The translations under genes were made by a program, and so were the position numbers. A DNA stretch of 59,953 bases from Bacteroidales bacterium (GTDB lineage Bacteria; Bacteroidota; Bacteroidia; Bacteroidales; 4484-276). Where the stretch lies: NCBI GenBank assembly GCA_029934065.1, contig JAOZMX010000002.1, positions 138-60,090 on the forward strand, given 5' to 3'. Every line of letters starts with the position of its first letter. Position 1 is the first letter of the stretch. Below the pieces are notes generated by a model that worked only from the letters and a program-made list of their open reading frames with translations, did not search any database and was not told the DNA's origin. Below are positions 24,681 to 52,972 of the stretch, piece after piece.

Positions 24681-24703
24681 GTAATTGCGTTATGGATTTT
24701 TGA

Positions 24704-29828: not shown

Positions 29829-29847
29829 ACCCTTTTCATTTTGCACA

Positions 29848-29889: not shown

Positions 29890-29913
29890 GAACAAACGAA
29901 AAAATTTAAAACG

Positions 29914-38900: not shown

Positions 38901-41900
38901 AGGTGAAGATCAGGTGGAGGTACCTTTCGGCACAATTGACGACGATATTGAAGACGGCGACCAGATCGTGATGATCACCGTTTCAGCCGAAGGCTATGGA
39001 AGCGGTACCTGCTGGGTGATGGTTACCGACCTAAACCTGCCGGATTATACCATCCCGGATATTTCGCTTTCGCAAAACGACATTCTGATCAACGAAACCA
39101 TCACGGTAAACCTGTTCGTGAAAAATACCGGCTTTGCCGTTGCGCCCAACGGAGCCACTGTGAATATTTACCGTTCCGACGACACCATTCCCGACGATGA
39201 TGATCTGCTGCTCGATTCGCAAATCACACAAGACGGTCTTGATATCGGCGACTCGCTGGAAATTTCCTCGGAGATCACTTTTACCGGCGAAGTAGGGGAT
39301 TTTTACATCATTGCCACGGTAAACGAAAATAACAACCGCCCCGAATTGTTGAGTATCAACAACACTTCACTTGCATTGCCCCTCAGCGTTCAACCGGATT
39401 ATACGGCTACGGTAACCGTTGAGGAAGAGGTGTTCAACGGCCGTACACCCATTCCTATCCACGGCGTTACGCAAACGGTAAACAAAGCCCCCGTACCCGA
39501 TAAACCGGTTGATGTTTACATCATCGTTGACGGTGTGCGCAGGGTTCATCAGGTGATCAGCGACGAAAACGGAGAATTTGAATACCTCTTTATCCCTGTC
39601 AACGGCGAAGCAGGTAAGTATGATGTGGGTGCCTGCTATCCCGGCCAGGGCCTCACCGATGCCCAGGATGAGTTTACCATCCTCGGAGCCAAACATACCG
39701 AAACGGGCGATATTCTTTGGAACCTAACACTCGGGGAAACACAGCAGAAATTTCTTGAAATCAAAAATTTTACCGATTTACCGCTGCATAATCTTCAGGT
39801 GGAAGTCGAATGGGCTCCGGCGGGTTGTACGGTGAATTTCGTGCCGGTGGTCAATCTTCCCGGCAACGGTTATGCCACGATAAATTACAGCGTTGAAGCA
39901 ACGGCGGTAACACAAGGCGACCAGTATCAGCAGGTGAAACTATCTCTTGTTTCGGACGAAGGTACCCGTTTTGAATTCGTCACCTGGTTTTATGCCACGG
40001 CGCCCATAGGAAATCTCAAGCTTGACCCGGTGGTTTTGAATGCCACCATGGTACAAAATGAAATCAACTACGTTGAGTTTGAAGTGCAAAACAACGGACT
40101 GGACACCACCGGGCCGGTGAGCATCCTGTTACCGGAGCTCGACTGGCTGTCGCCGGCAAGCCCCGACACCATCCCGTCGCTGCAGCCGGGCGAAAGTGCC
40201 ACGGTAACGTTGAGCCTCACCCCGGGCGACGACTTGCAGCTCAACAATCCCGTTACCGGGCAACTGGTGCTTACCGGAACCAACAGCAACAGTGTGTTGT
40301 TGCCGTTCAGCTTCGAGCCCATTTCGCTCGAAACAGGCAACCTGCTGGTGGATGTGGTGGACGAGTACACCTACAACACGACGGCTGCACCTCACGTGGA
40401 GGGAGCTACCGTCATACTCAAGCATCCATACACCGGCGAAATTATTGCCGAAGGACAATCCGATGAAAACGGCCATTTCCTTGCCGAGGATATCAACGAA
40501 GGGTATTACGTCCTGAAAGTGGAAGCCCCGCAGCACATCGGATACCAGGATTATATCTACATCGACAAAGGCATTGTCAACGAGGTGGTAACATTTATTA
40601 CCTTTCAGGCCATCACCTACACATGGAATGTTGTTCCTACCGAAATCGAAGACCAATACGCCGTAACGCTCATCACACAGTTCGAGACCAATGTACCGGC
40701 TCCGGTGGTGATCATGGACATGCCCGACACGCTACCTCATCTTGAGCAAGGCGAATATTTCCCCTTTCTGGTAAATCTTACCAATGTGGGTTTGATCACC
40801 GCCGAGGATGTGGAAATCACTTTTCCGGATGATCCCGAATACATGTTTACCACAACGGTGGATCAGTTCGACATTTTGCCCAATCAAACCATACAGGTTC
40901 CTGTTGTGATGGAGGTTCGCCCGCCGGAGAAATCCGGTGACGGCAAGAAACTGGTTTGCGCCGATATCACCATTGCCAAATACCAGTTCGATTGTGGCCC
41001 CGACGGTAAACTGAGGGTTGTTGCCGCATGGAGTTTTTATCTCGGCAGGGTTTGCGGTGAATCCGGGACGCCGAGCAACATTTTTTCGCAACTGCCGAGT
41101 TTCGGCCCGGGCGGCCCCGGTGGAGGAGGGGGAAGCCTTAACAGCCCAGGCTGGTCTCCGGAGTATCAGGAACCGACACCTTATCAGGGAACCTACATTG
41201 CATGCGACACCTGTCTGGTGGATGCGATGAACTGCCTGCTGGATTGTATCAACCCGATCCCCGGGCCGTTGGATTGCGGTGCCGATCTGCTATCCAACAA
41301 ATTGAATTTACAAAATTATATTTCATGTATCCTCTCCGTGGTAGATGCTTTAACCGACGGAAAACTGGGCTGTTTCTACTGCATCGGAACCACCGCAGGT
41401 TGTTTCCTTACGGTACCGTTTCCCTCACCTCCCATTATTCCCATGGGAAACAAAGGATACTCGGAGCTTTCGGAAATGGAACAAATCTTTAACGACATGA
41501 TCTGGCTTAACAAGGGATACGGAGCCCTGGCCGATTATACCGTTGAAATTCTCGGAAACGAAAGTTTTCTCGAAAAAGAATACCTCGGCGAGTTCAGAGA
41601 TTCGGTTGCCGTATTTCTGGATGAAAAGATACCGGTTGATACGGTAACCCGCAACAATCTGGTGGTTGCCTTCGAAGATACCGACATCAGCGAGGAAGAA
41701 ATTCTGGACTTTGTTGATCATTGGAATACTACCATGGAAGCATGGAGCAACGGTATTTATTCTCCCACGCAGGAATATCCCGATATTGCTGATACTTTGC
41801 TATTGCATGAATACCAGTTGAATTACGATTCAACCATTCAATACACGCATACACGCGGTTATCCTTCGTTCGATTCGCTCTACAATGCCGATATGGTCAT

Positions 41901-44900
41901 CATGAGAGCTTATCTTGATAATGAATCCCAATCGGTATGTGCCACGGTAACGGTAGAGTTTTCGCAAACGCTGACCATGACCCGTGAGGCTTTCGAGGGA
42001 ACCCTGACCATTTTCAACGGACACGAAACCGATGCCATGCAAAACATCCAGCTTAACCTTGAAGTACGCGACGAAGAAGGGATCATCCGGAACGATCTCT
42101 TCCAGATCAATACCTTGTTGCTGGATGAAATAACGGCCATAGACGGCTCGGGGATTCTGGACGCCCAAACGGAAGGAAGTGTGGTGATACAATTTATCCC
42201 CGAACGCAGTGCCGCACCCACCGTGCCGAAGTATTATTCTTTCGGCGGAACACTGACCTATCTGGATCCTTTTACGGGAGAAATCTACGAACAACCGCTC
42301 TTTCCGGTAACCCTTCAGGTGAATCCCAGTCCGAATCTTTACATCGACTGTTTCATGCAACGCAATATCTTCGGCGACGATGCCCTCACCGAGCCCATCG
42401 AGCCCATGATTCCGGCGGAGCTTGCCGTGATGATCGACAATCAGGGCATGGGCACGGCCAAAAATGTTTCGCTCGAATCGGCACAACCGGTCATCATCGA
42501 CAACGACAAGGGCCTGTTGATCGACTTTGAGATCATCGGGTCGAACCTCGGCGGGCAACCCATGCAACTGGGCCTTTACAATGTTCAGTTCGGGGATATT
42601 CCCGGCGGTGAAACGGCTGTAGGCCAATGGTGGTTCACCAGCACTTTGCTCGGACATTTCGTCTCGTATGAAGCATCGGTAAATCATCTCGACAGCTACG
42701 GCAACCCCGACCTGAGTCTTGTGAGCGGCATACAGATTCATGAGTTGATCAAAAGTATCCGTGTTTACGGTGCGCTCGACGATAGCATCAACGATTTTCT
42801 CGTGAACGACATACCCGACGCAAATGATATTCCCGATGCTTTGTATTATTCCAACGGAGCCGTAGCCGAAGTTTTTGAGGCCGGGAGTATTCAGGCCGAC
42901 GGCGTGGTAACGCTCAACGATACGATCATTCAGATCACGGTGACGCCTTCCGAAGCAGGTTGGAACTACGCTTTGACGGATGATCCCGGAAACGGTTTGT
43001 ACAGGTTGGTGAGCTGCACACGCAGTGACGGGCAGGTGATTCCCGAAGAAAACATCTGGCTTACCTACTGCACCATTCCCGACGGTGATGAGCCGATTTA
43101 TGAAAACAAGCTTCATTTTGTGGATAATTTCGAAGCCACCGATTCGGGTGGTGCGGAACCGGCAGATTATACGGTAGTGTTTGAAGCCATCGATCAGGAT
43201 GTGCCCAAAGTGGTTGCCGTACTCGGTGTTCCCGAAGAGCCGGCTGATTATCCGGTGGAAAATGTTCAGGTCGTCTTCAGCGAACCCATCGAACCCACGA
43301 CGTTCGATTATCAGGACATGGTACTGAAAAATCAGGGAGGTCCCAATCTGATGGATACGCTTGTGACGGTAACTCCTGTTAACGATTCCGTCTTCGATGT
43401 GGACATCTCCGACAAAACTTCCAAAAACGGCTATTACACCCTTACCGTTCAGGCTTCGGGTGTGGCTGACCTCAGCGGAAACTACGGCAACGAAGGATTG
43501 CAGGTGTCGTGGATACAAGCCATTCAGGCGCCGGCCATTGATTATTTCTTCGGTGTTCCCGAAGAACCCGGCGAGCCGATAGATACGATCCTCGTATTGT
43601 TCAACATGCCCATTTACGAAATCACCTTTACCACCGATCAGCTGGAACTGACCGGCACCGACGGAAATCCGCTTCCCACAGGCAGCCTTGTGATCACTTC
43701 CGAAAGCCCCAACAGCGTGCTCTTCAAGATCAGCGGACTGGAAGCGCTTTGCGGTGATGACGGCACTTATCTGTTGACGGTAAAAGTAACGGAGATACAA
43801 GGAGTAACGGGATTGGCCGGTGTGCTTGACCAATCGGTAGGATGGACGGTGTGTCAAATCCCGTTTCCCACGGCTTTTGCAGGCAATGATGCTACCGTAT
43901 GTGCCGGAGCCGCTTATCCGCTCAACGGTACGGCGGAAAATGTAAGCTCGGTTTTATGGACAACTTCCGGAACGGGTACTTTCGACAACGAACAATCGTT
44001 GACGGCAGTTTATACTCCCGGAACGGAAGATTTGGCTGCAGGGTCTGTTGAAATTACGCTCAACGCACTGCCGCTCAATGACTGTGCGCCTTCCGCAACT
44101 TCATCCGTCACCCTTTCATTCGAAAACAATACAACTGTCAATGCCGGTGAAGATGCTGAAGTTTGCGAGAACGGAACGCATACTCTGTTCGGCATGGTAA
44201 CCAATGCAGAAAGTTTCGAATGGATCACCTCGGGCGACGGCATCTTTGATGATAACGGTATATTGACACCGGAATATTCTCCCGGCCCCTATGATGTTGA
44301 AACGGGATTTGCAATATTGTCGCTGGTGGCATATCCCGCAAGTCCGTGTACGATGCCCGACACTTCGTCGATAATGTTGACTGTAAAACACCTTCCCGAA
44401 GCTTCGGTAACGCCGGATACGACCATTTGTGAGGACGAAACACTTCAGCTTGATGCACAGGCATCCGACTACAGTTCATCGTTCTGGATTACCTTCGGAG
44501 ATGGTACATTCAGCTCGCAGCAGGTTCTAAATCCGGTTTATACGCCGGGTGCAGAGGATTTGCAAAAAGGCTCGGTATTTTTGGTGCTTGTTGTTTTGCC
44601 CGAAAGTCCCTGTTACACAAATGTCATTGTTCCGGCTCATGTTGCCTTTGCAAGGTTGCCAGAGGTGTATGCCGGGGAGGATTCTCCCGCAAGCGAATAC
44701 CAGCCCTATCAGCTTTCGGGCTTTGTGGATAATGCACTCTCTTTTATCTGGACAACTCTGGGCGACGGTGTTTTCGACGACCCCAACCGGATTGATGCGG
44801 TTTATTCCTTCGGCACCAACGACCTGACGGCGGGAGAAGTAACACTGACCCTGACGGCAGAACCGCTGAGCCCTTGCGTAAGTTCGGTGTCGGATGATAT

Positions 44901-46077
44901 CCATTTAACCGTTACACAATGTCAGAATTATGTCCTGCAAAGCGGCTGGACGGGAATTTCGTCTTTCGTGGAACCTGAGGAGAGCAATGTGGAGGTTATT
45001 TTTGAAAATGTGGTTGAAAACCTTGTTATCCTCCAGTCGCAAACCGGTTTTTACTGGCCTCCACAAAATGTCAACACCATCGGCAACTGGAACCTGACGG
45101 AAGGCTACAGCATCAAGGTGAACAACAAAACCAACCTCACCATCAGCGGAACAAAAACCGTTGTAAACACCTTGCAACTTAATCCGGGATGGAACCTGAT
45201 TCCGGTGTTGACTCCTTGCAGTGTTGACGTTGAACAATTGTTCCAGGGGTTGGATATGGTAATCGTCAAAGAAGATGCCGGCTGGGGAATTTACTGGCCC
45301 GAAATGAATGTCAACACCCTGGGGGAACTTACCCCCGGAAAAGCTTACTTTGTGCTGATGAACAATTTTGCGGAAATCCTCTTCCCGGATTGTACATCCG
45401 ACACCAAAGCGGGAAGCATCAACCCCCTGCCCGATATCAACGGATTGTTGCAAACGGCATCATGGAACGGCATTACCAATACTCCAGTGACACATATCGT
45501 GGCCATACCCCTCCGGGCCGTTGATCCCTCGCTTATCGCAACGGGAGATATCATCGGTGTGTTCGACGGTTTCGGCAACTGCTTCGGCGCCACGGTGTGG
45601 GAAGATGAAAATACGGCAATCACCTTGTTCGGTGAAGATATGCTTACCGCGGCCAACGACGGATTCGACGAGTTGGACAATTTGTACTTTAAAATTTTCG
45701 ACCCCTCGTCGGGAACGATTTTCGAACCGGAAGTAACATGGGATGAGGAAATGCCTGACCACGACGGCCTGTTTCATGCCGACGGACTATCGGCAATACA
45801 AAGTTTTTATCAAATTACAAACGTAAACCAGGAGACGGCCGGACAACAGCAAGTAAGGATTTATCCCAACCCTGCCACCGACAGACTGTTTATTGAATTT
45901 TCGCAACAACAGGATGTCACGGTGGATCTGTTTGATATTCACGGGCAGCAGATTCTTACAAAAGAGATATCCGGCGTTGCCGGACAATTGGATATTTCCG
46001 GACTGACAAGCGGGATTTATCTTGTGAAAATTGAAGGAGAAAAAACCAGCATTGTCAAAAGGGTCATAAAGCGGTAA
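29914..46077 (+). CDS. Giant (5387 aa) secreted T9SS cargo protein with multi-domain adhesin-like architecture
   Basis: Single uninterrupted 16,164-nt ORF with ATG start and signal peptide (FGIIVLLIALLNIQGLVTAQ). Recognised by motif: four copies of the GVFDG...TAWE module (two carrying nested LamG). At least ten choice-of-anchor-D/ASH-like Ig domains (pattern F.P...G.....L.I.SND...P...V.L.G.G). A third nested LamG (KGKMDEIRIWNIARNESEIQSAM). CARDB-like domains (SDLTVHNIVIPDTVQAGATVDVSFTVTNNG and PDYTIPDISLSQNDILINETITVNLFVKNTG). Four Calx-beta-like units. A carboxypeptidase-regulatory-like unit. A Cys/Gly-rich hinge and a ~750-aa unassigned core. Two SbsA-type Ig-like units. Four ~87-aa Cys-containing repeats. 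The shared cassette and T9SS CTD. Confidence 0.9.
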   Translation: MDTKNKTGYFRHFGIIVLLIALLNIQGLVTAQNEPFEPVPPTGLPYGIVLTNLNINGETLPVGTQIGVFDGELCVGVVDFDGSDTLNLIAWEGDTSQNLAGYTAGNPMSFKFHVLWHSEYQNFDAEANYSVGDGTFGYGNYSAVTLWVTTGLIPHCWVSDTLLMFNMVPVNQSRSLPVVFHNGGTAKLAVTGIENGDSHFTCSSSSLLIDPAEQDTLWVTFIPTETITYSDVLTMQTDDPDLPALSIPLYGAGIPQAQPHIVVNPAALHFGSIAHGTTSSLILNLFNNGDATLEITEITSSNDAFALFGNTPFTVEPGKNTDISVLFSPAQTGSYYGTLTIQNNDHPVVVPLTGTAAQGHFSCVEPTGKPYPVLIDTIMMDGYFPSPENEIAVFDGTLCVGTGTFISSNNDKSLSLDGDNDYLTNENSTEFDLQQLTLSAWVFSENFNQNGFIFEKGAKNTQYSLFFQGDQIFFGTKPEGTSGYDNFAVNSASAGITDGQWHFITATYDGLQKKIYVDGTLAGTQNYSQPLHTGEQGQIIGAYGATGGHGYYFNGLIDEVRVWNVARTGEEIRAGMLFSLHPNTLGLVGYWNFGDGSINNLAFGATPSVLHGDAVADGEQFGGIFSEILITAWEKDDALGLPGFTPGNPMSFKIWCDVFDTWAETNATAEFITGNGNFGAGQISVVDLSGNAGIAPHMGLPAEELFVGQVEPGNTAVNEFTVFNTGNAPLHLIVSENAEAFDVSVSNAVIDPADSLQIGITFSPDAPGGYSADMKLYSNDPDNPVTAILLNGFAIPSGEPGIATSMDHIGFFNVVVDSVKTLSFYVINTGTLPLTVTEMKTSCAQFSVSPSAFTLENTNDLKEVFVSFTPDAKGLFTDTLTIVSNAPDHQLELFGTGFENHFNPVDPTGKPYPIVVNETNLGTTITPGDELSVFDGNTCVGMAAGMEGYFGKAAVFSAGADYITVDEPGEFTEFTVEFWRKSTGNGISNNPRMISMWKTAPNNSSDDALVIEHTNSNQNTVTVWFSPDGDNKQIGDINLSQQQWHHLAFTFDGTTAKVYADGELKASETYAPDPGLTFHCLQIGGDEPMNRYFNGLMDEVRLWNVAKTEEQIRSLFRFRLKGDEEGLTGYWPFDEDMNDHSPLQHATQAFGDVSLTGDVPLLFKNGNLALTAWEKDVANGLPGFTPGNPMSFKLWTEINGIASELDAEPDYLVGDGTFGYGQLTVVNLAFGLPQIAVDPEEFFVALEEPDSTEVVLHISNPGVDDLGFVISKAPENGQAPWLAVSDTSGTIAPSASTEITVKLYSEGLNDGLYETSLLITNNTIDHSPFAVPVSLNVTGNPQIAAQPDSLCMGEVVIGESGEDTLTLVNIGTKALIIDDMAILHSVTSGFDFSLPAKDFPVVLPPGGNLKVILLFAPSSTGFVTDTLTVSSNAVNDPGMQVILSGRGVTPADIYIPETVFGYTVVCGGTYSDSLKIHNLGQQTLEFALQSNAAWLEGYPQEAVIPGGDSITVHLNISAVDLYAGNYESVLTVNSNDPDDPVAELFSTLTVTGDPEIISTDYFDMGTAYLGDTLTGELAVANNGCDTLKVFSVSVESQYPVFIIDNSPFAIPPGEDKPLLITFVPLDIRQYSAIVILNSNDPVTPELQVVIAATGAEHPDMTVTPQNFEITLQSGENTQEPFTVENTGGESLIYQSEVSPMNSYMLNFDGDGDYINVLNDNSLNSGDALTVELWLYPSENADQFILGKENSVEGTYRLRINGDQHYEFRLNRQFSVISNTPATADQWTHVAATFDGSTMRLFINGILDAEQTFAPFTIESSSDNVRIGRSYKYKYFKGKMDEIRIWNIARNESEIQSAMGLTLSGDDPELMLYFPFTKSSGSIVNDASANGNNGILYGNPFRQQSTAPYDDFLSLINGNGSVEPGEQQSVILSVNSSGFPAGGYQRSVVVTSNSVNNPSDTVSLVVNIEGSGIINPVPAQLTFDNIFTGQTDTLMLTLKNTGALAVEVNGVSFSDPDFHTVDVIDKIFPFAQKQLRVVFAPSVVKTYEATLTLLLENATSPTLEIPLTGQGLTPPVPVFTPTQIDFGDVLVNNTATENAVLSNDGNALLEVYSATFDNGTFLTDDLILPQTIGFGEQIAFHIFFLPLNYETVVDHLLFSTNMGLLSLPVSGTGIPPDNDLSVIAVETPHDGCGLSDNESLTITIKNFGQFSQSNFNVGFSLNNAAPVIETVSTTLPSGESTGYTFAQTLDLSVFGNYSIETFTLLGDDQNTWNDTLAYSLSNYPPVGEVTGLSPADSSFGCVEPVTFSWNAVDNASFYDLYLWRTNQQKPEEPSVEGLTATSYTWYAYLNKNYLYNWQIVARNECSQSESEVFVFSFNIFSDLTVHNIVIPDTVQAGATVDVSFTVTNNGTGGTGIIPWKDRLYISPSPVFIPGEVQLLAEVQNVKALSQGESYTDTVSVAIGELLEGAQYVFVFADAGNIIQETDEENNLGVSQGTMEVLLPPYPDLSVEDVQSLTGNITPGTNTSVGWMTKNIGDAPAIGGWSCKISLVSGEQRLILGYVQYTDTLETGGFITQAGTFAVPEYPAMEGEVYLEVALTPYPGLVEKPNATANNTALSAESVTLEKRLYISIPQPVIEENAVSPLWCNVFRSGSRAEELTVTLNVSEENRLILPETVSIPAEQSGAAFAVSPVNNELIEGDVTVEIAAQAGDYPGTADTLTIVDDEMPSLNVEITPDEAVEGEIVDVTVTRDLVTSQALTVYLVAGMSDQLELPGSVEIQGNQASATIEVPVIDDNVPELTVEVTVSALLTGYLTGTDSLTISDDDIPAISFTINPDTVSEAGGPYASWGTIQLQEPADGTLTIQLSADPPGDIFFPQMITIANGMTQKQFNIGAVDNGVLDGDRVVELTASVFIESCSCGAPPTSGGTTTKEITVLDNDGPSLAVSAEPFVVPENLVNAGILTVTRNTNGGDAVEITLQNNSPDEISLPATAVIPEGEDQVEVPFGTIDDDIEDGDQIVMITVSAEGYGSGTCWVMVTDLNLPDYTIPDISLSQNDILINETITVNLFVKNTGFAVAPNGATVNIYRSDDTIPDDDDLLLDSQITQDGLDIGDSLEISSEITFTGEVGDFYIIATVNENNNRPELLSINNTSLALPLSVQPDYTATVTVEEEVFNGRTPIPIHGVTQTVNKAPVPDKPVDVYIIVDGVRRVHQVISDENGEFEYLFIPVNGEAGKYDVGACYPGQGLTDAQDEFTILGAKHTETGDILWNLTLGETQQKFLEIKNFTDLPLHNLQVEVEWAPAGCTVNFVPVVNLPGNGYATINYSVEATAVTQGDQYQQVKLSLVSDEGTRFEFVTWFYATAPIGNLKLDPVVLNATMVQNEINYVEFEVQNNGLDTTGPVSILLPELDWLSPASPDTIPSLQPGESATVTLSLTPGDDLQLNNPVTGQLVLTGTNSNSVLLPFSFEPISLETGNLLVDVVDEYTYNTTAAPHVEGATVILKHPYTGEIIAEGQSDENGHFLAEDINEGYYVLKVEAPQHIGYQDYIYIDKGIVNEVVTFITFQAITYTWNVVPTEIEDQYAVTLITQFETNVPAPVVIMDMPDTLPHLEQGEYFPFLVNLTNVGLITAEDVEITFPDDPEYMFTTTVDQFDILPNQTIQVPVVMEVRPPEKSGDGKKLVCADITIAKYQFDCGPDGKLRVVAAWSFYLGRVCGESGTPSNIFSQLPSFGPGGPGGGGGSLNSPGWSPEYQEPTPYQGTYIACDTCLVDAMNCLLDCINPIPGPLDCGADLLSNKLNLQNYISCILSVVDALTDGKLGCFYCIGTTAGCFLTVPFPSPPIIPMGNKGYSELSEMEQIFNDMIWLNKGYGALADYTVEILGNESFLEKEYLGEFRDSVAVFLDEKIPVDTVTRNNLVVAFEDTDISEEEILDFVDHWNTTMEAWSNGIYSPTQEYPDIADTLLLHEYQLNYDSTIQYTHTRGYPSFDSLYNADMVIMRAYLDNESQSVCATVTVEFSQTLTMTREAFEGTLTIFNGHETDAMQNIQLNLEVRDEEGIIRNDLFQINTLLLDEITAIDGSGILDAQTEGSVVIQFIPERSAAPTVPKYYSFGGTLTYLDPFTGEIYEQPLFPVTLQVNPSPNLYIDCFMQRNIFGDDALTEPIEPMIPAELAVMIDNQGMGTAKNVSLESAQPVIIDNDKGLLIDFEIIGSNLGGQPMQLGLYNVQFGDIPGGETAVGQWWFTSTLLGHFVSYEASVNHLDSYGNPDLSLVSGIQIHELIKSIRVYGALDDSINDFLVNDIPDANDIPDALYYSNGAVAEVFEAGSIQADGVVTLNDTIIQITVTPSEAGWNYALTDDPGNGLYRLVSCTRSDGQVIPEENIWLTYCTIPDGDEPIYENKLHFVDNFEATDSGGAEPADYTVVFEAIDQDVPKVVAVLGVPEEPADYPVENVQVVFSEPIEPTTFDYQDMVLKNQGGPNLMDTLVTVTPVNDSVFDVDISDKTSKNGYYTLTVQASGVADLSGNYGNEGLQVSWIQAIQAPAIDYFFGVPEEPGEPIDTILVLFNMPIYEITFTTDQLELTGTDGNPLPTGSLVITSESPNSVLFKISGLEALCGDDGTYLLTVKVTEIQGVTGLAGVLDQSVGWTVCQIPFPTAFAGNDATVCAGAAYPLNGTAENVSSVLWTTSGTGTFDNEQSLTAVYTPGTEDLAAGSVEITLNALPLNDCAPSATSSVTLSFENNTTVNAGEDAEVCENGTHTLFGMVTNAESFEWITSGDGIFDDNGILTPEYSPGPYDVETGFAILSLVAYPASPCTMPDTSSIMLTVKHLPEASVTPDTTICEDETLQLDAQASDYSSSFWITFGDGTFSSQQVLNPVYTPGAEDLQKGSVFLVLVVLPESPCYTNVIVPAHVAFARLPEVYAGEDSPASEYQPYQLSGFVDNALSFIWTTLGDGVFDDPNRIDAVYSFGTNDLTAGEVTLTLTAEPLSPCVSSVSDDIHLTVTQCQNYVLQSGWTGISSFVEPEESNVEVIFENVVENLVILQSQTGFYWPPQNVNTIGNWNLTEGYSIKVNNKTNLTISGTKTVVNTLQLNPGWNLIPVLTPCSVDVEQLFQGLDMVIVKEDAGWGIYWPEMNVNTLGELTPGKAYFVLMNNFAEILFPDCTSDTKAGSINPLPDINGLLQTASWNGITNTPVTHIVAIPLRAVDPSLIATGDIIGVFDGFGNCFGATVWEDENTAITLFGEDMLTAANDGFDELDNLYFKIFDPSSGTIFEPEVTWDEEMPDHDGLFHADGLSAIQSFYQITNVNQETAGQQQVRIYPNPATDRLFIEFSQQQDVTVDLFDIHGQQILTKEISGVAGQLDISGLTSGIYLVKIEGEKTSIVKRVIKR
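31144..31788 (+). other. LamG-like domain 1 nested inside GVFDG...TAWE module copy G2 (30994-31983)
   Basis: Module first half: CVEPTGKPYPVLI...ENEIAVFDGTLCVGTGTFISSNN. Then LSLDGDNDYL...WHFITATYDGLQKKIYVDG...GLIDEVRVWNVARTGEEIRAGM...GYWNFGDG. Then module second half: ILITAWEKDDALGLPGFTPGNPMSFKIW...GNGNFGAGQISVVDL. Confidence 0.65.
32752..33408 (+). other. LamG-like domain 2 nested inside GVFDG...TAWE module copy G3 (32614-33606)
   Basis: Module first half: FNPVDPTGKPYPIVV...GDELSVFDGNTCVGMAAGMEGYF. Then AVFSAGADYITV...WHHLAFTFDGTTAKVYADG...GLMDEVRLWNVAKTEEQIRSLF...GYWPFDED. Then module second half: LALTAWEKDVANGLPGFTPGNPMSFKLW...GDGTFGYGQLTVVNL. Confidence 0.65.
35020..35540 (+). other. LamG-like domain 3 nested inside an Ig-like (choice-of-anchor-D-like) domain spanning 34891-35825
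   Basis: Host first half: VTPQNFEITLQSGENTQEPFTVENTGGESLIYQSEVS. Then YMLNFDGDGDYINV...WTHVAATFDGSTMRLFING...GKMDEIRIWNIARNESEI...LMLYFPF. Then host second half: FLSLINGNGSVEPGEQQSVILSVNSSGFPAGGYQRSVVVTSNSVNNPSDTVSLVVNIEG. Confidence 0.6.
37790..39045 (+). repeat. Four tandem Calx-beta-like units (~100 aa each; tentative)
   Basis: Four successive segments share a common layout. Each has a short strand, then an E/N-rich site and a T/V-R-x-G-like turn, then an 'L/I-P..V.I..G....F.V..V/I.D' block, and ends in TIVDDEMPSL, TISDDDIPAI, TVLDNDGPSL or MVTDLNLP. The DY signature of canonical Calx-beta is absent, so the call is tentative. Confidence 0.5.
43873..44920 (+). repeat. Four tandem ~87-aa Cys-containing repeats (A.AG.D...C...L.G......W.T.GDG.F......Y.PG..D...G.V.L.L......C)
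   Basis: Repeat starts: AFAGNDATVCAGAAYPLNGTAENVSSVLWTTSGTGTFDN, VNAGEDAEVCENGTHTLFGMVTNAESFEWITSGDGIFDD, SVTPDTTICEDETLQLDAQASDYSSSFWITFGDGTFSS, VYAGEDSPASEYQPYQLSGFVDNALSFIWTTLGDGVFDD. This repeat style is common in large Bacteroidota surface proteins. Confidence 0.7.
45853..46074 (+). other. T9SS type-A C-terminal sorting domain of the 5387-codon product
   Basis: VRIYPNPATDRLFIEFSQQQDVTVDLFDIHGQQILTKEISGVAGQLDISGLTSGIYLVKIEGEKTSIVKRVIKR is a near-textbook Por-secretion-tail sequence. Confidence 0.85.
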
Positions 46078-46447
46078 AACATTTTTAACCTCCATTGCAG
46101 CAATAGACGGTAAAAAAGAAAAGAATACATCAACAGCCCGAAAAGTTGTTGAAAATTGCAAAGTGGTTTTGCCGGCGGAGTTGCAATGGGGGTTAATAAA
46201 AGTTACTTAATGGAAATGGGGTGAACCATATTTATGATTTGAACAACCGAAAGCCCGAGATTATTGAATGTCCCGGTTAAAATCGTGAACAGGAGCGTCA
46301 CCTTGTATCACTTGTGAACAATTCTCTTTAAAAATTCCTTCACAAATATAAATTCGTGAACAAAATACGTTATTAACCGTTATTGGAAATAGTATTTTAA
46401 GGAGAATTGAAATCAAGTTATCATCAATCATTAAAAGTTGAATTACT

Positions 46448-47158
46448 ATGAGAGCAAAATTTTTACTTTTATTTGTTGTATCCTGTTTTGTTTTTCAGGG
46501 GGTTGAAGGTCAAAATAATCAGAATAAAAAATTTTACTTTACTTCCGGAGGTGAAATGATTTTTTCGTTTGCCAGCATTGATGACAACGGCAATACGGAA
46601 GGGAACCCCATGCGCTGGACCCCGTGGTTCAATGTACAGAGCCTTGTCAATTACGATCCGACCAGGGTATTCGGACTGTTTTCGGGGGTTAATGTGCGAA
46701 ACATCGGTTTTATTTACGACAACTATGTCAGTCCGGTTACCGGTGACAAGGTAAAAAAGAAATTCAGAACTTACGATGTGGGCATCCCCATAGGATTTAA
46801 ACTTGGCAACCTTGACGGTTTCATGTTCTTTGGCGGGTACGAAATCGAGTTTCCCATCACCTACAAAGAGAAAACATTTCAAAACGAAAAGAAAACCGAA
46901 AAGTTCACCGTCTGGTTCAGTAAACGTGTGCCCACGGTTTATCACACGCTCATGGCAGGCGTTCAATTTCCTTACGGTTTTAACCTGAAATTCAAGTATT
47001 ACCTGACCAATTTTCACAATAAAGATTACGCCGAAACCATTAACGGAACGGAATACAAACCGTACGAGAACCTGAATGCCAATGTGTTTTACTTTTCATT
47101 GAGTTTCAATTTGTTTAAGGACACAAAATTTTATTATACCGAATCCGACATTAAATAA
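46448..47158 (+). CDS. Hypothetical secreted protein, probable outer-membrane beta-barrel
   Basis: 236-codon ORF with ATG start and signal peptide MRAKFLLLFVVSCFVFQGVEG. Alternating hydrophobic/aromatic strands (GVQFPYGFNLKFKYYLTNF, ANVFYFSLSFNLF). No family recognised. Confidence 0.65.
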   Translation: MRAKFLLLFVVSCFVFQGVEGQNNQNKKFYFTSGGEMIFSFASIDDNGNTEGNPMRWTPWFNVQSLVNYDPTRVFGLFSGVNVRNIGFIYDNYVSPVTGDKVKKKFRTYDVGIPIGFKLGNLDGFMFFGGYEIEFPITYKEKTFQNEKKTEKFTVWFSKRVPTVYHTLMAGVQFPYGFNLKFKYYLTNFHNKDYAETINGTEYKPYENLNANVFYFSLSFNLFKDTKFYYTESDIK

Positions 47159-47174
47159 TTTCAACCCTGAAAAA

Positions 47175-47957
47175 TTGAAAACACATCATCTGCTTCTTTT
47201 ATTTTTTTATTTTTTCTTGAGCCAAAACATTTTGCCGCAGCAGGATTCGGCACAATACAAGAACACTCCCTGGAGCAATCACTGGGAATATGATTATAAA
47301 AATGTTGCAAAAATCAGTTTAACGGCTTTGGCCTTCAGTAATATTTCCCTCTCCTACGAAAGGAGCTTCCGGCCGAGATGGACGATAAGCCTTAATGCGG
47401 GATACAAATTTTCGGGGGGTACGACCAATTTGTTAGGGATGGATTCCACCAGCATCTCCATTTCAACGGCTGGCATCAAAGGTTTTTCCGTTACACCCGA
47501 ACTGAGGTATTATATTAAAAGCTGTGAGAATCAGTCGCCAAACGGTTTTTATGCCGGAATATATTTGCGTTACGTCCATTACCAATCGGAAGCGTTCTTT
47601 AATCATTATCCCAATTATCCCGACAAAGACGTTGTTGATTATTTCACTTCCGACATCCGGCTGGATCAATATGGAGCAGGATTGATGATCGGTTATCAGT
47701 TATTGATCAAAAACCGGTTCATATTCGATTTTATCATCTTGGGGCCGCGAACTTCCCGGGTACAAATGATTTACAAATTCGATGACAATGTTACGGATGA
47801 ATTTTTATCCGATCTGCAATCGAACCTTCAGCAAATCGTTGACCGTTACGGGTTGGATTATCAGGTGGAGGTCAGCCAGAGCAATTCAAGAGAAGTACGT
47901 TATTCATTTGGTTTTACCGATATCCGGTTTTCCATCTCCATCGGATATGCATTTTAG
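47175..47957 (+). CDS. Outer-membrane beta-barrel protein, DUF3575-like
   Basis: 260-codon ORF that starts with TTG in the ORF track, with no in-frame ATG near the signal peptide (LLLLFFYFFLSQNILPQQ). Blocks NVAKISLTALAFSNISLSYERSF, FSVTPELRYYIK and GFYAGIYLRYVHY resemble DUF3575. C-terminal aromatic residue (IGYAF) is typical of OM barrels. Confidence 0.6.
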   Translation: MKTHHLLLLFFYFFLSQNILPQQDSAQYKNTPWSNHWEYDYKNVAKISLTALAFSNISLSYERSFRPRWTISLNAGYKFSGGTTNLLGMDSTSISISTAGIKGFSVTPELRYYIKSCENQSPNGFYAGIYLRYVHYQSEAFFNHYPNYPDKDVVDYFTSDIRLDQYGAGLMIGYQLLIKNRFIFDFIILGPRTSRVQMIYKFDDNVTDEFLSDLQSNLQQIVDRYGLDYQVEVSQSNSREVRYSFGFTDIRFSISIGYAF

Positions 47958-48041
47958 TCTCCGGATTAAAACAAAAAGAATGGTACAATGTTTGATACAC
48001 TTAGGGTTTCAATACATTTAATTTTAAATTAAAAATATTTA

Positions 48042-48665
48042 ATGATCACTCGAAAAATTTATTTTATATCGCTGGGCTTTTTTATCTTGTTTTTTGCCTG
48101 TTCGTCACCGATGAACGTGCAGTCGGACTATGATCACAATGTGGACTTTACCCAATACAAAACATACAATTTCATCCCGCAGCCTGTTGATTCGATAACG
48201 GGCAAGCCGTTGGTGCCATACAAAACACAAAGACGTCTGGAAGCCGGCATCGAGTATCAACTCCAAAAAAAGGGTTACCATTACATTTATACCGAGAATC
48301 CCGATTTTTGGATATCCTATTATGTGAAAGTCAATCAGGAAGAACGCCCGGGAAATGTTTACGTCATGGTTGCCCCACCCTATTATTTGTATAACAATCC
48401 GGCATATAACATGCATTACGGCAACCAGTATTATTCCGGAAATCCTTACACCGGAGGGTATTACGGCTGGGCCGGTGCCAGTGTTTCATCCTATACCTAT
48501 ACCACCGGGGCTTTGGCCGTTGACATTGTTGACGGAAAAACGGGAAAACTTGTATGGTATGGACGCGCAGGGGGAGAAATCAGCTCTAATCCCGGTGATA
48601 TTCAAAAAAATATAGACAAAGCTTGTGGTGATATTTTTGAAAAATTTAACTGGACTGCGAAATAA
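48042..48665 (+). CDS. DUF4136-like lipoprotein with a Tyr/Asn/Gly-rich insert
   Basis: 207-codon ORF with ATG start and lipobox (FFILFFACSS). DUF4136-like blocks: VQSDYDHNVDFTQYKTYNFIP and GALAVDIVDGKTGKLVWYGRAGGEI. Insert YYLYNNPAYNMHYGNQYYSGNPYTGGYYGW at 48381-48478. Confidence 0.7.
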   Translation: MITRKIYFISLGFFILFFACSSPMNVQSDYDHNVDFTQYKTYNFIPQPVDSITGKPLVPYKTQRRLEAGIEYQLQKKGYHYIYTENPDFWISYYVKVNQEERPGNVYVMVAPPYYLYNNPAYNMHYGNQYYSGNPYTGGYYGWAGASVSSYTYTTGALAVDIVDGKTGKLVWYGRAGGEISSNPGDIQKNIDKACGDIFEKFNWTAK

Positions 48666-48759
48666 AAGATTTACTTTTGCATTCGTTAAAAAAGCAACTA
48701 AATAAATTAAAGCAAACAATTGAAATAATATTTTATTAATCATTAACTTATTAAAGACT

Positions 48760-49452
48760 ATGGAAAAAAAAGTAAGATTAACATTGGCGTTGGTATTTTT
48801 AGCCTTTGCGGGAATGTTCATCACATCCTGCTATCCGACGGACAATGTGAATTATGAAGACCTCGATCTGGTAGCCACCGTTTACGACAAGAGCGAAAAC
48901 TTTGAAGCCCTCAGTAGTTTTGCACTGCCCGATACGATTGTGCATTTGAAAGACACTACAAATCCCGATAATGACGTGGATTTAAGCAGGCAATACGACA
49001 GTTTTATTTTGAACCTTATCCGGGAAAATATGGTCAATTACGGGTATGAATTTATTGAAAATCCCGATACATCCAACAGACCTGATGTAGTGCTGACCGT
49101 ATCAGCCATGGGGACAAAGAATTATTCGGTATGGTACTGGTATCCCGATTACTGGTACTGGTATCCATGGTATCCCTGGTACGGTAAATCAAGCGAAAAT
49201 ACCGACTGGTATTGGTATCCCAGCTATCCCTGGTATCCGGGCGGCAGTTATGTTACCTCCTATTCGGTGGGAACACTGATTATGATGATGCACGATATTA
49301 CCGATGTCCAGCAGGAAACCGATACCATTCCAGTTGTTTGGTTAGGTACCATCAACGGATTGCTCGGCAGTAATTCAAACGATACTAAAAACCGTCTTGA
49401 ATACAACATCAATGAAGCGTTTAAACAATCGCCTTACCTCGACACCAAATAA
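48760..49452 (+). CDS. DUF4136-like lipoprotein with a Trp/Tyr/Pro-rich insert
   Basis: 230-codon ORF with ATG start and lipobox (FAGMFITSCY). Blocks LVATVYDKSENFEALSSFALPD and VGTLIMMMHDIT...IPVVWLGTINGLL parallel the preceding gene. Insert WYWYPDYWYWYPWYPWYGKSSENTDWYWYPSYPWYPGGSY at 49132-49250. Confidence 0.7.
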   Translation: MEKKVRLTLALVFLAFAGMFITSCYPTDNVNYEDLDLVATVYDKSENFEALSSFALPDTIVHLKDTTNPDNDVDLSRQYDSFILNLIRENMVNYGYEFIENPDTSNRPDVVLTVSAMGTKNYSVWYWYPDYWYWYPWYPWYGKSSENTDWYWYPSYPWYPGGSYVTSYSVGTLIMMMHDITDVQQETDTIPVVWLGTINGLLGSNSNDTKNRLEYNINEAFKQSPYLDTK

Positions 49453-49491
49453 ATCAATATTAAAATCATAAATTTTAAAATAAATCATATT

Positions 49492-50085
49492 ATGAAAAAA
49501 ATATTTTTAGCCGTTTTATTAGGACTGTTTTCGCTGCCGATGTTTGCGCAGCAGGAAAATAGCGGAGCATTGTGGTCGTTCACTTACGATATGGCTTTCC
49601 CCATGGGAGCGACCAAAGATTACACCGGCAAAGCAAGTTTCAGGGGAATGATGCTGGACGGCCGCGGATTTGTTGACAATAACATTACTCTCGGAGGAAA
49701 TTTCGGTTGGAACGTTTTTTACGAAAAAGCCGACAAAGAAACCGTAGAAGTAGATAATATTACTTTGACGGGAACACAATATAAATACATCAATGCTTTC
49801 CCGATGTTTTTCAATGCAGCTTATTATTTCAATGAAGGAAGCTATGTCAGACCGTATGTTGCTGCAAATATCGGTGTGATTTACGATATACAACGCACCG
49901 ACATTGGTTTGTATTCGTTTGATTACGACAACTGGAAATTTGCTTTTGCACCTGAAGTGGGGCTTGCTTTCCAAACCGACAGCGGTGTAGGGCTGATGGT
50001 TAACCTGCGGTACAACTACGGATTGGAAACATCAGACATTGATGCGTTGAGTTATCTCGGACTCAACATCGGATTGTTGTGGTAA
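49492..50085 (+). CDS. Small outer-membrane beta-barrel protein (OmpW/porin-family-like)
   Basis: 197-codon ORF with ATG start and signal peptide MKKIFLAVLLGLFSLPMFAQ. Amphipathic strands and a terminal aromatic residue (LGLNIGLLW). Confidence 0.7.
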   Translation: MKKIFLAVLLGLFSLPMFAQQENSGALWSFTYDMAFPMGATKDYTGKASFRGMMLDGRGFVDNNITLGGNFGWNVFYEKADKETVEVDNITLTGTQYKYINAFPMFFNAAYYFNEGSYVRPYVAANIGVIYDIQRTDIGLYSFDYDNWKFAFAPEVGLAFQTDSGVGLMVNLRYNYGLETSDIDALSYLGLNIGLLW

Positions 50086-50111
50086 AGTAAATCACTTCAC
50101 AATAAAAATAT

Positions 50112-50151
50112 AAACGGAAGACCATTAAACGGGTTTTCCGTTTTTTTTTTT
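50112..50151. terminator. Bidirectional rho-independent terminator between the OM cluster and the convergent sulfatase gene
   Basis: AAACGGAA (50112-50119) pairs with TTCCGTTT (50136-50143), followed by a long T-run to 50151. The flank on the other strand is A/T-rich. Confidence 0.7.
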
Positions 50152-50204
50152 GAATTAATCTCCATCGGGACAAAACGGTTTACCAAATTTCACAACGGTA
50201 ACCC

Positions 50205-52280
50205 TTACCTGACAATGATCTCGTCGGCGAACAGCCAGGCTTTACCGCCGGCGCCTTTGTGCCATGCGGGGCAGTGGCCGATGTTTTTGGCATGTACCCT
50301 GACATAACGTGCACGAACGTTTTCGCAATCCGTCATAAAAACTACCCGTTCTTTTCCCGAGAGGTCTTCGGCAGTTTCCCGGTTGATCTTTTTCAAAACG
50401 GTAAAAGTCTTGTTGTCGTCCGATACGGCAAACTCAACCCACACCGGCGAAAAGATCCATGAATCAATGTCCTGAAGAAAACCGGCGGATATGGATTTGA
50501 TGTCGGTGTTGTGTTGCAGATCGATGGTGGCAATCATATCGTTTTCTTCAAAGCCTTGCCAAACGCCAAGGTCTTTGGTTTTGGTCAGCTCTTTGGATGC
50601 CATCCGGCCGTCGGTCAGTGCATTGTTGCCTCCTCCGGGATATTTCCGCGAAAAGGGATATTCCAACGATACGGGCTTCCCCACAGCAATATGACCGATG
50701 GTTTCGAAAGCCTTTCCGGGCAGAAACTGATCCGCTCCGTCGTCCCGGTATTCTTTTCGCAGTTCCTTCAGTTGCTTTTTCAGTTGAATGACCTTTTCGC
50801 TGTATGCCGGATCGTTGTAAACATTTTTCATTTCATGGGGATCGTTTTTCAGATCGAACAACTCCCATTCGTCAATATCATAATAGTAGTGGATCAATTT
50901 GAAATCGTGCGTCCGGATGCCGTAATGGCGTTTCACGAAATGTTCGCACGGGTATTCGTAATAATGGTAGTAGATGGCATCACGCCAATCGCCGGGAGTT
51001 TTTCCCGCAAGGATATCCTTGAAGGATTTGCCCTGCATTTCACCCGGAACGGAAATGCCCGCAAAATCCAAAAATGTGGGGGCAAAATCGAGGTTCAACA
51101 CCATATCGTTGCTCACCGACCCTTTTTTCACCTCCCGGGGATACCTGACCAGCAAAGGTATTTTCAGCGATTCTTCGTACATAAACCGCTTGTCGAACCA
51201 GCCGTGTTCGCCGAGGAAAAACCCCTGATCGGAGGTGTAAACCACGATGGTATTTTCCGACAAGCCGTGCTTGTCGAGGTAATTGAGCACGGCGCCGACA
51301 CTTTCGTCAACCGACTGAATGGTGCCGAGATAATCTTCCTGATAGCGACGGAATTTCCAGCGGGCAAGTGCCTTACCCTCCGGGTTCTTCCGGTAGAAAT
51401 CGTTGTTTTTGTTTCGGTAAGCGCTGTCCCATGCCCGGCGCTGTTGCGGCGTCATCCGGTCGAAAGCACGGGTACTCAAGTCATTGACGACTTGTGTGGA
51501 ATCAAAACCGGTGGTCAGTTTCAGGTCGTAACCCAAATACATGTCTTTCCATACCGACATTTTCTGGGCTTTGGCCGCTGTACTTCTGTTTTTGTAATCG
51601 TCAAAGTAGTTGAAGGGAACGGGAATGTCGGTGGAGTCGAAATCGTTGATATGATCTATGTCGGGCATCCATGTGCGATGTGGGGCTTTGTGATGCATCA
51701 TCAGGCAAAACGGCCTGGTGGTGTCGCGTTCATCAAGCCAGTCGAGGGTGAGCTGCGTGATGATATCCGTTACGTAACCTTCGTATTTTTTGTTTTCACC
51801 CATTTCGATAAAACCGGGATTGTAATAATTGCCCTGCCCCCGCAGGATGTTCCAGTAATCGAATCCCGTGGGTGCACTTTTCAGGTGCCATTTTCCGATC
51901 ATGGCGGTTTGATAATCGTTATCACGAAGAATCTTGGGAAAGGTTTCCTGACTGCCGTCAAATTTTTGGGTGTTGTCAACCACGCCGTTGAGGTGGCTGT
52001 ATTTTCCGGTCAGGACAACTGCCCTCGACGGCGCACAAATGGCGTTGGTGCAAAAACTTTGGTCAAAACGCATCCCTTCGTCGGCAAGCCGGTCGATATT
52101 GGGCGTTTTGTTTACGGAATTGCCGTAACAACTGATGGCATTGGCGGCATGGTCGTCGCTCATGATAAAGATAATGTTGGGCCTGTCGTCTTTGCCGTTA
52201 CGTTGATCTTTGGTATTGTTGCAGCTTTGTAAAACCATTGCAACTGCAAACAATAAAGACATTGCAAATAAATTTTTCAT
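50205..52280 (-). CDS. Sulfatase (formylglycine-dependent, N-acetylglucosamine-6-sulfatase-like) with a C-terminal F5/8 type C-like domain
   Basis: 691-codon ORF with ATG start and signal peptide (LLFAVAMVLQSCNN). Sulfatase signature PNIIFIMSDDH and CAPSRAVVLTGKY (the C-x-P-x-R formylglycine motif). The C-terminal ~150 aa are discoidin-like (ARYVRVHAKNIGHCPAWHKGAGGKAWLFADEIIV). Confidence 0.9.
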   Translation of the reverse strand: MKNLFAMSLLFAVAMVLQSCNNTKDQRNGKDDRPNIIFIMSDDHAANAISCYGNSVNKTPNIDRLADEGMRFDQSFCTNAICAPSRAVVLTGKYSHLNGVVDNTQKFDGSQETFPKILRDNDYQTAMIGKWHLKSAPTGFDYWNILRGQGNYYNPGFIEMGENKKYEGYVTDIITQLTLDWLDERDTTRPFCLMMHHKAPHRTWMPDIDHINDFDSTDIPVPFNYFDDYKNRSTAAKAQKMSVWKDMYLGYDLKLTTGFDSTQVVNDLSTRAFDRMTPQQRRAWDSAYRNKNNDFYRKNPEGKALARWKFRRYQEDYLGTIQSVDESVGAVLNYLDKHGLSENTIVVYTSDQGFFLGEHGWFDKRFMYEESLKIPLLVRYPREVKKGSVSNDMVLNLDFAPTFLDFAGISVPGEMQGKSFKDILAGKTPGDWRDAIYYHYYEYPCEHFVKRHYGIRTHDFKLIHYYYDIDEWELFDLKNDPHEMKNVYNDPAYSEKVIQLKKQLKELRKEYRDDGADQFLPGKAFETIGHIAVGKPVSLEYPFSRKYPGGGNNALTDGRMASKELTKTKDLGVWQGFEENDMIATIDLQHNTDIKSISAGFLQDIDSWIFSPVWVEFAVSDDNKTFTVLKKINRETAEDLSGKERVVFMTDCENVRARYVRVHAKNIGHCPAWHKGAGGKAWLFADEIIVR

Positions 52281-52299
52281 AAAATCATCAATTTGCTGT

Positions 52300-52307
52300 C
52301 AAAAATA
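52300..52307 (-). promoter_or_regulatory. Candidate -7 promoter box (TATTTTTG on minus strand) for the sulfatase gene
   Basis: Exact TAnnTTTG match 19 nt upstream of the ATG at 52280. Confidence 0.45.
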
Positions 52308-52372
52308 ATCATTTGTGAAAACTGCGGCGGGAGGTTTGTCGGCAACATGTTCCGGGGAAAATGTCCCGGTCT

Positions 52373-52816: not shown

Positions 52817-52972
52817 TTAAATTCAAATTAACATTTGCTAAAAACTATTCTTTTATTTCTCTCGTCTGGCTATACCAGACAAATCACTACTAATTCCATC
52901 AATCTTACCATCATTTACATCATTATTTTTAATATTATCTATATTTTGTCTGGATTCTCCAGAAGGTTTAAA

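Follow-up and report, generated by a model that had tools for sequence, protein, structure and literature searches.

Separable doubled-unit, GVFDG and sorting-domain modules at the C-termini of giant type IX secretion cargo proteins in a Bacteroidales bacterium

Three giant open reading frames (ORFs) in a 59,953-nucleotide stretch of DNA from a Bacteroidales bacterium (contig JAOZMX010000002.1, positions 138 to 60,090; hereafter the window) encode proteins that end in the same cassette of ~380 amino acids (aa), in which a doubled unit (DU), a linker, a module with a GVFDG-type motif (GV) and the C-terminal sorting domain (CTD) of type IX secretion systems (T9SS) follow one another. We find that DU, GV and CTD are three separable modules in a favoured order and not one indivisible extended sorting signal, because DU ends proteins that have no CTD, GV is found without DU, and the CTD is found without the cassette. 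Most likely, these modules are independent of one another and the cassette is an arrangement of them that is favoured where T9SS-exported surface proteins lie nearest the cell; it belongs with the non-catalytic C-terminal modules of T9SS surface proteins, and its DU and GV fall into no described family. T9SS cargo has been described as a passenger plus a CTD, with anchoring thought to be covalent, through anionic lipopolysaccharide (A-LPS), or to proceed via PorP-like partners. The unannotated DU family (12,890 clusters) sits just inside the CTD in over half of the members examined and replaces the CTD in about a third, and this large CTD-less, DU-terminal set is the most interesting point of the family. 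A role in anchoring or assembly is plausibly the best reading of the cassette, and if DU does dock or assemble proteins, it would represent a third mode of holding proteins on the Bacteroidota surface and one would have to ask by what route DU proteins that lack a CTD exit the periplasm. DU and GV can be defined as two new domain families, allowing better annotation of thousands of giant proteins now labelled hypothetical in anaerobic Bacteroidales and Lentimicrobiaceae.

A shared three-module tail

The three ORFs encode proteins of 5387 aa (29914-46077, plus strand), 1570 aa (25116-29828, plus strand) and 1759 aa (15675-20954, minus strand). A preliminary description of the window had recognized the third protein and given its length as 1751 aa, which counts from the second methionine, just before the signal peptide; the first ATG yields 1759 aa. 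The N-termini are hydrophobic and signal-like (e.g., MKTLFTSFVLLALTAIALQA), and the remainder of the proteins has the repeats typical of surface fibres (Ig-like, LamG, CARDB, beta-helix and fn3). We translated the last ~590 residues of each protein and compared the C-terminal regions, minus the CTD, by BLASTP with composition correction, which yielded E-values of 1e-47 for the 5387-aa and 1759-aa proteins (31% identity across 307 aa), 7e-31 for the 1570-aa and 1759-aa proteins and 2e-20 for the 5387-aa and 1570-aa proteins. The tails are therefore alike outside the CTD as well, and one module order (DU, linker, GV, CTD) closes all three ORFs. Codon-aligned cassette DNA is only 40-45% identical between any two copies, third codon positions agree at 30-33%, and the longest exact stretch in common is 11-14 nucleotides. 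Because so little DNA identity remains, the three cassettes are old paralogues, and these figures agree with the earlier proposal that the similarity exists at the protein level only and reflects selection, not recent duplication. That the resemblance is an artefact of chance, low complexity or recent local duplication of a single 3' end is so improbable as to be negligible, given the composition-corrected E-values, third positions that are random and thousands of homologues elsewhere.

The CTD forms the last ~75 aa of each protein, and matches to Por_Secre_tail/TIGR04183 end 0-2 residues before the stop codon in all three. Against PF18962 and TIGR04183, respectively, it scores 60 and 57.8 bits in the 5387-aa protein (45859-46074, plus strand), 41.5 and 43.1 bits in the 1759-aa protein (15684-15887, minus strand) and 25.5 and 30.1 bits in the 1570-aa protein (29571-29819, plus strand); the curated cut-offs are 27 bits for PF18962 and 23 bits for TIGR04183, and the 1570-aa protein, whose CTD is a FlgD_ig-like variant (PF13860, E 9e-9), lies just below the former. 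An AlphaFold2 model of the 386-aa cassette (predicted local distance difference test score, pLDDT, 93.4; predicted template-modelling score, pTM, 0.77) gives the CTD a predicted seven-stranded beta-sandwich like that of solved CTDs, with Foldseek matches to 5ag8_A (the RgpB CTD, E 2.5e-5), 8glk_D, 8gl6_D and 8qb1_A (template-modelling scores TMt of 0.79, 0.78 and 0.72), of which 8glk_D and 8gl6_D are CTDs of T9SS substrates. All three terminal domains are bona fide type A T9SS CTDs. The CTD conducts cargo across the outer membrane, and the PorU sortase swaps it for A-LPS (PMC4560394; PMC4804311); a paper on lipopolysaccharide anchoring deals with the CTD itself (PMC12860637). As the CTD is cut off and replaced, the end of GV would become the new, anchor-proximal C-terminus. 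Searches of the three tails against Pfam and NCBIfam at E ≤ 1 returned nothing but the CTD and upstream PKD/Ig domains.

Profile hidden Markov models (HMMs) of DU (160 positions) and GV (112 positions) were derived from a first homology search and used to scan all six frames of the window, and their matches agree within a few codons with the module boundaries of the preliminary description. Each giant protein contains a single DU: a full-length match at 44917-45396 (plus strand) in the 5387-aa protein (independent E-value, i-E, 1.3e-71), one at 16329-16811 (minus strand) in the 1759-aa protein (i-E 2.3e-53; BLASTP E 1e-47 to the 5387-aa copy), and a divergent copy, also found by BLASTP, at 28638-29114 (plus strand) in the 1570-aa protein (i-E 1.4e-29), which lacks the cysteine pair described below. 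DU is a compact domain of ~160 aa made of two homologous halves. Profiles of half 1 (positions 1-82) and half 2 (83-160) align with an hhalign probability of 99% (E 7e-18, 30% identity), bearing out the doubling of a ~75-aa unit first noticed by eye; in the 5387-aa protein the halves lie at ~44917-45162 and ~45163-45396 (plus strand). The AlphaFold2 model of DU, built from a 28-sequence alignment (pLDDT 96.8, pTM 0.90), is mainly beta by DSSP, with one short helix predicted in each half. Conservation is strong, with ~35 positions at ≥80% identity (clusters at 50% identity) and invariant residues in both halves (W11, W58, Y64, W92, W127, Y144 and an NxNT motif). Across 235 copies, the two cysteines of 'LSxC' and the terminal 'FPxC' are both present in 173, while one is present in 4 and neither in 58; this near-perfect covariation points to a disulfide and hence an extracytoplasmic location, and in the 5387-aa protein it implies a predicted bond between the cysteine of 'LTPC' and that of the terminal 'FPDC'.

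Pfam and NCBIfam offered no family for the DU region of the three window proteins at E ≤ 1, and none common to more than one of 28 DU sequences at E ≤ 10. The DU profile matched none of the PDB sequences at E ≤ 10, Foldseek of the DU model alone against the PDB gave no match at E ≤ 0.001 (best E 0.59, TM ≤ 0.27), so that no solved carbohydrate-binding module (CBM) or lectin resembles it, and we found no description of the module in the literature. DU is a large unannotated family without a solved structural relative. It is not a dockerin, as PF00404 is unmatched and DU is 160 aa long and mainly beta, and a DU half, GV and the CTD are unrelated to one another at the profile level (hhalign probability ≤2%). 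In the BFVD database, the DU model has one Foldseek match, A0A8D9C8P8 (E 6e-3, TMq 0.64, 10% identity), which may be a protein of marine Bacteroidota or of a phage with a domain distantly resembling DU; this 587-aa entry is a 'putative hemin binding protein' of an uncultured marine phage, a name that suggests annotation transfer from a CTD protein such as HBP35. The last beta-hairpin of the DU halves (45100-45160, GYSIKVNNKTNLTISG; 45330-45390, GKAYFVLMNNFAEILF) looks by eye like the motif D/E hairpin of the CTD (46000-46074, GIYLVKIEGEKTSIVKRVIK; all plus strand), a likeness that is not significant in profile comparison (hhalign P ~0.05, probability 1%).

GV is a module of ~110 aa, modelled as a beta-sandwich, that occurs in two subtypes. 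The C-type ('SHxIAxP ... GDxIGxF ... FGDDxxT ... KDGF') lies between DU and CTD in the proteins examined, as at 45478-45813 (plus strand) in the 5387-aa protein (HMM i-E 2e-43; all-beta in the AlphaFold2 model, pLDDT >90) and at 15936-16256 (minus strand) in the 1759-aa protein (i-E 4.1e-32). The N-type ('GDEIGVFDGxLCVGA ... AWExD') follows DU in the 1570-aa protein, where the HMM core covers 29268-29483 (plus strand; i-E 2.3e-17) and the span of 29218-29545 assigned earlier is likely the full domain. The N-type also occurs immediately before DU, from which 1-6 aa separate it, and in the 1570-aa protein such an extra copy (GDEIGVFDGNLCVGA) stands immediately 5' of DU at 28308-28610 (plus strand; i-E 2.6e-22). 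In other proteins it directly precedes the CTD without any DU (P0230, P0231 and a 684-aa ORF in locus L082) or is joined to true dockerins in small secreted proteins (P0232, P0236 and P0241, one of them from Zixibacteria). Near its N-terminus the 5387-aa protein carries three further GV modules; these and the extra copy in the 1570-aa protein come on top of the one GVFDG-type module first reported in each tail. One of these modules comes right after the signal peptide (30043-30348, plus strand; i-E 2.3e-23), and the other two are split by a nested Laminin_G_3 domain, apparently through insertion of one domain into another. The first of the split modules (31021-31974, plus strand) consists of GV pieces at 31021-31197 (HMM positions 5-61, weak, i-E 0.61) and 31789-31974 (positions 44-108, i-E 1.9e-11) around a LamG at ~31162-31629 (E 4.8e-27), and the second (32638-33594, plus strand) of pieces at 32638-32862 and 33400-33594 (i-E 7.3e-9 and 1.2e-12) around a LamG at ~32788-33249 (E 6.7e-27). 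If the C-terminus is the anchor, this N-terminus would be the distal end of the protein. A Pfam search of 18 GV sequences at E ≤ 10 gave no consistent family, and the GV profile matched none of the PDB sequences at E ≤ 10; with the negative scans of the three tails, neither DU nor GV corresponds to a described Pfam or NCBIfam entry, a point that the preliminary description had raised for the doubled unit. GV is not a cohesin, PF00963 being unmatched.

A fourth T9SS cargo protein in the window (147-3554, plus strand), with BNR/sortilin-like, F5_F8_type_C and Por_Secre_tail domains, has no match to the DU or GV HMM in the six-frame scan, which makes the cassette optional for CTD proteins in the source organism. 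Compared with the type A CTD as it is known (PF18962/TIGR04183; Porphyromonas gingivalis RgpB, PDB 5ag8), the cassette shares the last ~75 aa, their position at the extreme C-terminus and a modelled beta-sandwich. It differs in that DU and GV, which make up ~300 of its 380 aa, are unrelated by profile, DU also by fold, and in that a CTD can occur without it, as in ORF 147-3554.

Distribution and architectures of the DU family

We searched 1.84 billion representative proteins (clusters at 50% identity) with the DU profile and obtained 12,890 clusters at E ≤ 1e-3, of which 6,043 reach E ≤ 1e-10 and 1,336 reach E ≤ 1e-30. Among 231 DU proteins examined, 128 end in DU-GV-CTD, with 212-268 aa beyond DU, and 79 have no CTD and stop ≤12 aa past DU, typically 0-2 aa after 'FPxC(E/D/N)'; 8 end in DU-GV, and the remaining 16 have other arrangements. 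DU is usually single and nearly always the last or third-last domain, although reiterated forms exist (DU-GV-DU-GV-CTD, and one protein with five DUs) and DU is N-terminal in P0053 and P0172. A 163-aa protein that appeared to consist of DU only (P0061) proved to be a contig-end fragment.

These counts overturn the suggestion that the cassette is specific to the giant proteins of the window, since the 128 proteins that share its ending have very different N-terminal parts. Nor is an extended secretion unit supported in the sense of a cassette always seated before a CTD: 79 of the 231 proteins end at DU without a CTD, GV is also joined to dockerins, directly precedes a CTD in proteins that lack DU and stands at the N-terminal tip of the 5387-aa protein, and the CTD protein at 147-3554 has no cassette.

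Proteins with the cassette range from ~457 aa, almost free of any passenger, to fibres of more than 5000 aa, and their N-terminal passengers are mutually unrelated. Across both forms, the passengers include Peptidase_C25 with propeptide, Peptidase_C10, reprolysin, CBM20/48, leucine-rich repeats (LRR) with BACON, beta-helix, LamG, Ig/PKD and cohesin domains. The DU-terminal proteins, which have Sec signal peptides, comprise gingipain-like proteases (Peptidase_C25 with propeptide and Ig-like C-domain; P0120, P0156 and P0029), other proteases (Peptidase_C10 in P0051, reprolysin-like in P0192), a starch-binding protein with multiple CBMs (CBM20/CBM48/X25; P0143), LRR+BACON (P0130), Fib_succ_major+LamG (P0099), beta-helix (P0022) and AhpC/TSA (P0046) proteins, and a protein with a true cohesin (P0080); the N-domain of a 351-aa DU-terminal family is not a cohesin like that of P0080 (hhalign E 0.23). 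At the other extreme, the passenger-less proteins P0008-P0020 (~457 aa) consist of a signal peptide, ~50 aa and DU-GV-CTD, and their occurrence in many clusters implies an independent function for the cassette. Their ~50-aa segment, also present in P0023 and P0026, bears a conserved '...SLSWTLGE...ILTQGFQQP' and precedes DU-GV-CTD or DU alone; it has no Pfam match.

We also scanned species-representative genomes with the DU motif GWNLIPVLS and a 7-sequence alignment and examined the best 80 of 162 loci, nearly all of which come from metagenome-assembled genomes (MAGs) of uncultured Bacteroidales and Lentimicrobiaceae. Among these 80, the highest numbers of loci per MAG are 13, 10, 7, 7 and 6, and one MAG has at least 19 DU ORFs in the fetched loci. 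Individual MAGs contain cassette as well as DU-terminal forms, and further CTD genes often adjoin them in tandem. Genes for DU-GV-T9SS-CTD proteins were also seen in MAGs labelled as Clostridia (L042, L048, L080 and L082; SABY01..., 'Clostridia bacterium INTA.CYC.150') and Chloroflexi (L032; DYPW01000718.1, a 1.2-kb contig of a 'Caldilinea aerophila' MAG); as this architecture is typical of Bacteroidota, these are probably mislabelled or contaminated bins.

The two forms have interchanged. Terminal and cassette DUs interleave by sequence, with a cassette DU as the nearest neighbour of 19 of 74 terminal DUs, so that switching between forms must have taken place more than once. In one locus of an uncultured Bacteroidales MAG (L039, 2192-3859; CBDUSM010000100.1), an in-frame TAA after '...TITFP' splits GV-DU-GV-CTD into a GV-DU ORF (identical to P0030) and a linker-GV-CTD remainder, so that the cassette and DU-terminal forms are a single mutation apart; this TAA may have arisen by nonsense mutation, reflect an error of sequencing or mark a genuine two-gene cassette.

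The DU-terminal proteins also bear on the possibility that DU is an export or sorting element, serving either as a second kind of T9SS signal or, by binding an adaptor such as a CTD protein, as a means for CTD-less proteins to ride the T9SS. DU takes the place of the CTD on usual T9SS cargo types (the Peptidase_C25 and Peptidase_C10 proteins above and BACON/LRR proteins), their Sec signal peptides are accompanied by a C-terminus 0-2 residues from 'FPxC(E/D/N)', and the last hairpin of each DU half calls to mind, by eye, the type A CTD hairpin. We nevertheless regard an export role as very unlikely, since DU is mostly internal with a canonical CTD behind it, where a further sorting signal would be superfluous, stands at the N-terminus of P0053 and P0172, and shows neither profile similarity to the CTD (hhalign probability ~1%) nor a Foldseek match to solved CTDs. 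Moreover, the 3.5 kb downstream of 22 DU-terminal genes hold unrelated genes, with no conserved partner and no PorP/SprF-like gene, unlike the type B T9SS CTD, which pairs with a cognate PorP/SprF-like anchor protein (PMC9143113). Type B CTDs resemble DU in being an alternative C-terminal module for non-covalent surface attachment of T9SS cargo, a role that is putative for DU. Because no partner gene adjoins the DU-terminal genes, the type B CTD/PorP pairing does not fit DU, which also differs in being mostly internal and in having no TIGR04131-type HMM similarity in the NCBIfam scan. The neighbourhood of a small cassette protein (P0005) contains housekeeping genes alone.

A candidate docking or assembly role

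We tentatively favour a reading, judged somewhat short of an even chance, in which DU serves many proteins as a docking or assembly module and makes a single contact, common to all of them, at the cell surface. This reading draws on the C-terminal position of DU, its many paralogues, its diverse passengers and its passenger-less forms, as well as on DU conservation that is alike in both architectures and on the co-occurrence of GV on either side. GV-CTD would serve as the covalent anchor unit after PorU exchange, with DU held to it by a variable linker of ~20 aa and making an identical contact whatever the passenger. The partner of DU might be the GV modules of neighbouring proteins, which are the obvious candidate, another surface protein, or a glycan of the surface or envelope, and DU-terminal proteins would use this non-covalent docking in place of a covalent anchor.

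Several observations weigh against this proposal, and the first concerns how the modules are joined. The linker between DU and GV varies in both length and sequence, spanning 14-95 aa with a mode of 20-21 in 136 homologues and being poorly conserved save for a 'PW' close to the start of GV, and this speaks against DU and GV having to form a rigid unit; in the 5387-aa protein this tether lies at 45397-45477 (plus strand), and pLDDT falls to 69 at cassette residues 161-170. The pTM of the modelled cassette hints, weakly, at something other than a freely floating 160-aa DU in a 386-aa chain, for which a lower value would be expected. Foldseek matches of the whole cassette fall mostly on the CTD or on pairs of generic Ig domains and are thus uninformative on DU. 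Second, DU residues are alike with and without a following GV, with no class-specific difference and no visible signature of a GV interface. Third, the 5387-aa protein has GV far from the anchor too, at its N-terminal tip and with nested LamG domains, and GV occurs in the signal peptide-GV-dockerin proteins, so GV is not merely anchor-proximal and may itself bind a ligand. Finally, the DU-terminal proteins have a Sec signal peptide only, which leaves their crossing of the outer membrane unaccounted for, and in a few proteins DU is N-terminal or present five times (P0053 and P0085).

The gap between GV and the CTD, in contrast to the DU-GV linker, is a constant 7-13 aa, a placement that recalls the Ig-like domain before the CTD of RgpB, whose domain order is catalytic-IgSF-CTD (IgSF, immunoglobulin superfamily). 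Like that domain, GV is a small modelled beta-sandwich that precedes the CTD by a short, fixed spacing and would be anchor-proximal after CTD removal. DU and GV might accordingly be passive structural modules, such as stalks, spacers or aids to folding and stability, that have no specific ligand, and their compact, beta-rich, confidently modelled folds and the Ig-like repeats that largely make up the giant proteins are in keeping with such a role. We think this unlikely. One would not expect a spacer to close 79 of 231 proteins as their very last domain, nor to account for nearly all of the mature chain in members of the ~457-aa family; DU, with its ~35 highly conserved positions, is much better conserved than generic Ig-like spacers and is single in most members examined, without forming a repeat array. 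GV differs from the RgpB IgSF domain in that no sequence similarity was found and in that it is mobile, occurring with dockerins, at N-terminal tips and around nested LamG domains.

The mobility of GV is also relevant to a further alternative, in which DU, GV or both are new carbohydrate-binding modules, similar to lectins or CBMs, that recognize external substrates or cells, making the cassette adhesive and not a device for assembly. The invariant aromatic and Asn/Thr positions in both DU halves would suit glycan binding, as would the GV modules that host LamG, a concanavalin-like lectin domain, at the far end of the 5387-aa protein; the small signal peptide-GV-dockerin proteins have the format of many cellulosomal CBM proteins, and some DU-terminal proteins are starch-binding multi-CBM proteins (P0143). 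We consider glycan binding possible but doubtful, because DU has no Foldseek match to solved structures, CBM and lectin folds included, and most passengers are not carbohydrate-active (proteases, LRR, Ig/PKD fibres, a peroxiredoxin). In addition, DU adjoins the membrane anchor and is therefore poorly placed to reach external substrates on fibres of 1500-5400 aa, and passenger-less cassette proteins are common.

Within the docking or assembly role that we favour, a more specific version holds that DU and GV form a docking pair, resembling dockerin and cohesin yet unrelated to them, with DUs plugging into the GVs of neighbouring proteins. GV would be offered by proteins anchored through GV-CTD, dozens of paralogues would be linked into a surface coat, and DU-terminal proteins, including the gingipain-like proteases, would be displayed on CTD-anchored partners and perhaps carried through the T9SS in this way. 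The comparison with the dockerin-cohesin system (PF00404/PF00963) rests on a duplicated C-terminal module (DU) on many unrelated secreted proteins per genome and on a beta-sandwich module (GV) that adjoins a cell-surface anchor, and the two systems meet in the fusions of GV to true dockerins (P0232, P0236 and P0241) and of DU to a true cohesin (P0080). There is no homology between them, however: dockerins are helical, bind calcium through duplicated loop-helix segments of ~22 aa and span ~70 aa, unlike DU, which is ~160 aa long, beta-rich and disulfide-bearing, and DU and GV mostly lie on one chain. Their pairing is suggested by analogy, and we view it as improbable.

Other features of the window

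Genes for the T9SS machinery (SprA/Sov, PorU, PorV and others) are absent from the 60-kb window. The MetH encoded in the window reaches at most 66-67% identity to MetH of uncultured Bacteroidales MAGs, in line with a source organism that is Bacteroidales-like and uncultured. Its GC content is uneven over the regions 15001-30000 and 45001-54000: the giant genes are mostly at ~0.50-0.51, but fall to 0.44-0.45 in the 5' portions of the genes for the 1759-aa and 1570-aa proteins (18-27 kb), and the DNA downstream of the 5387-aa gene (45-54 kb) is at 0.41-0.42.

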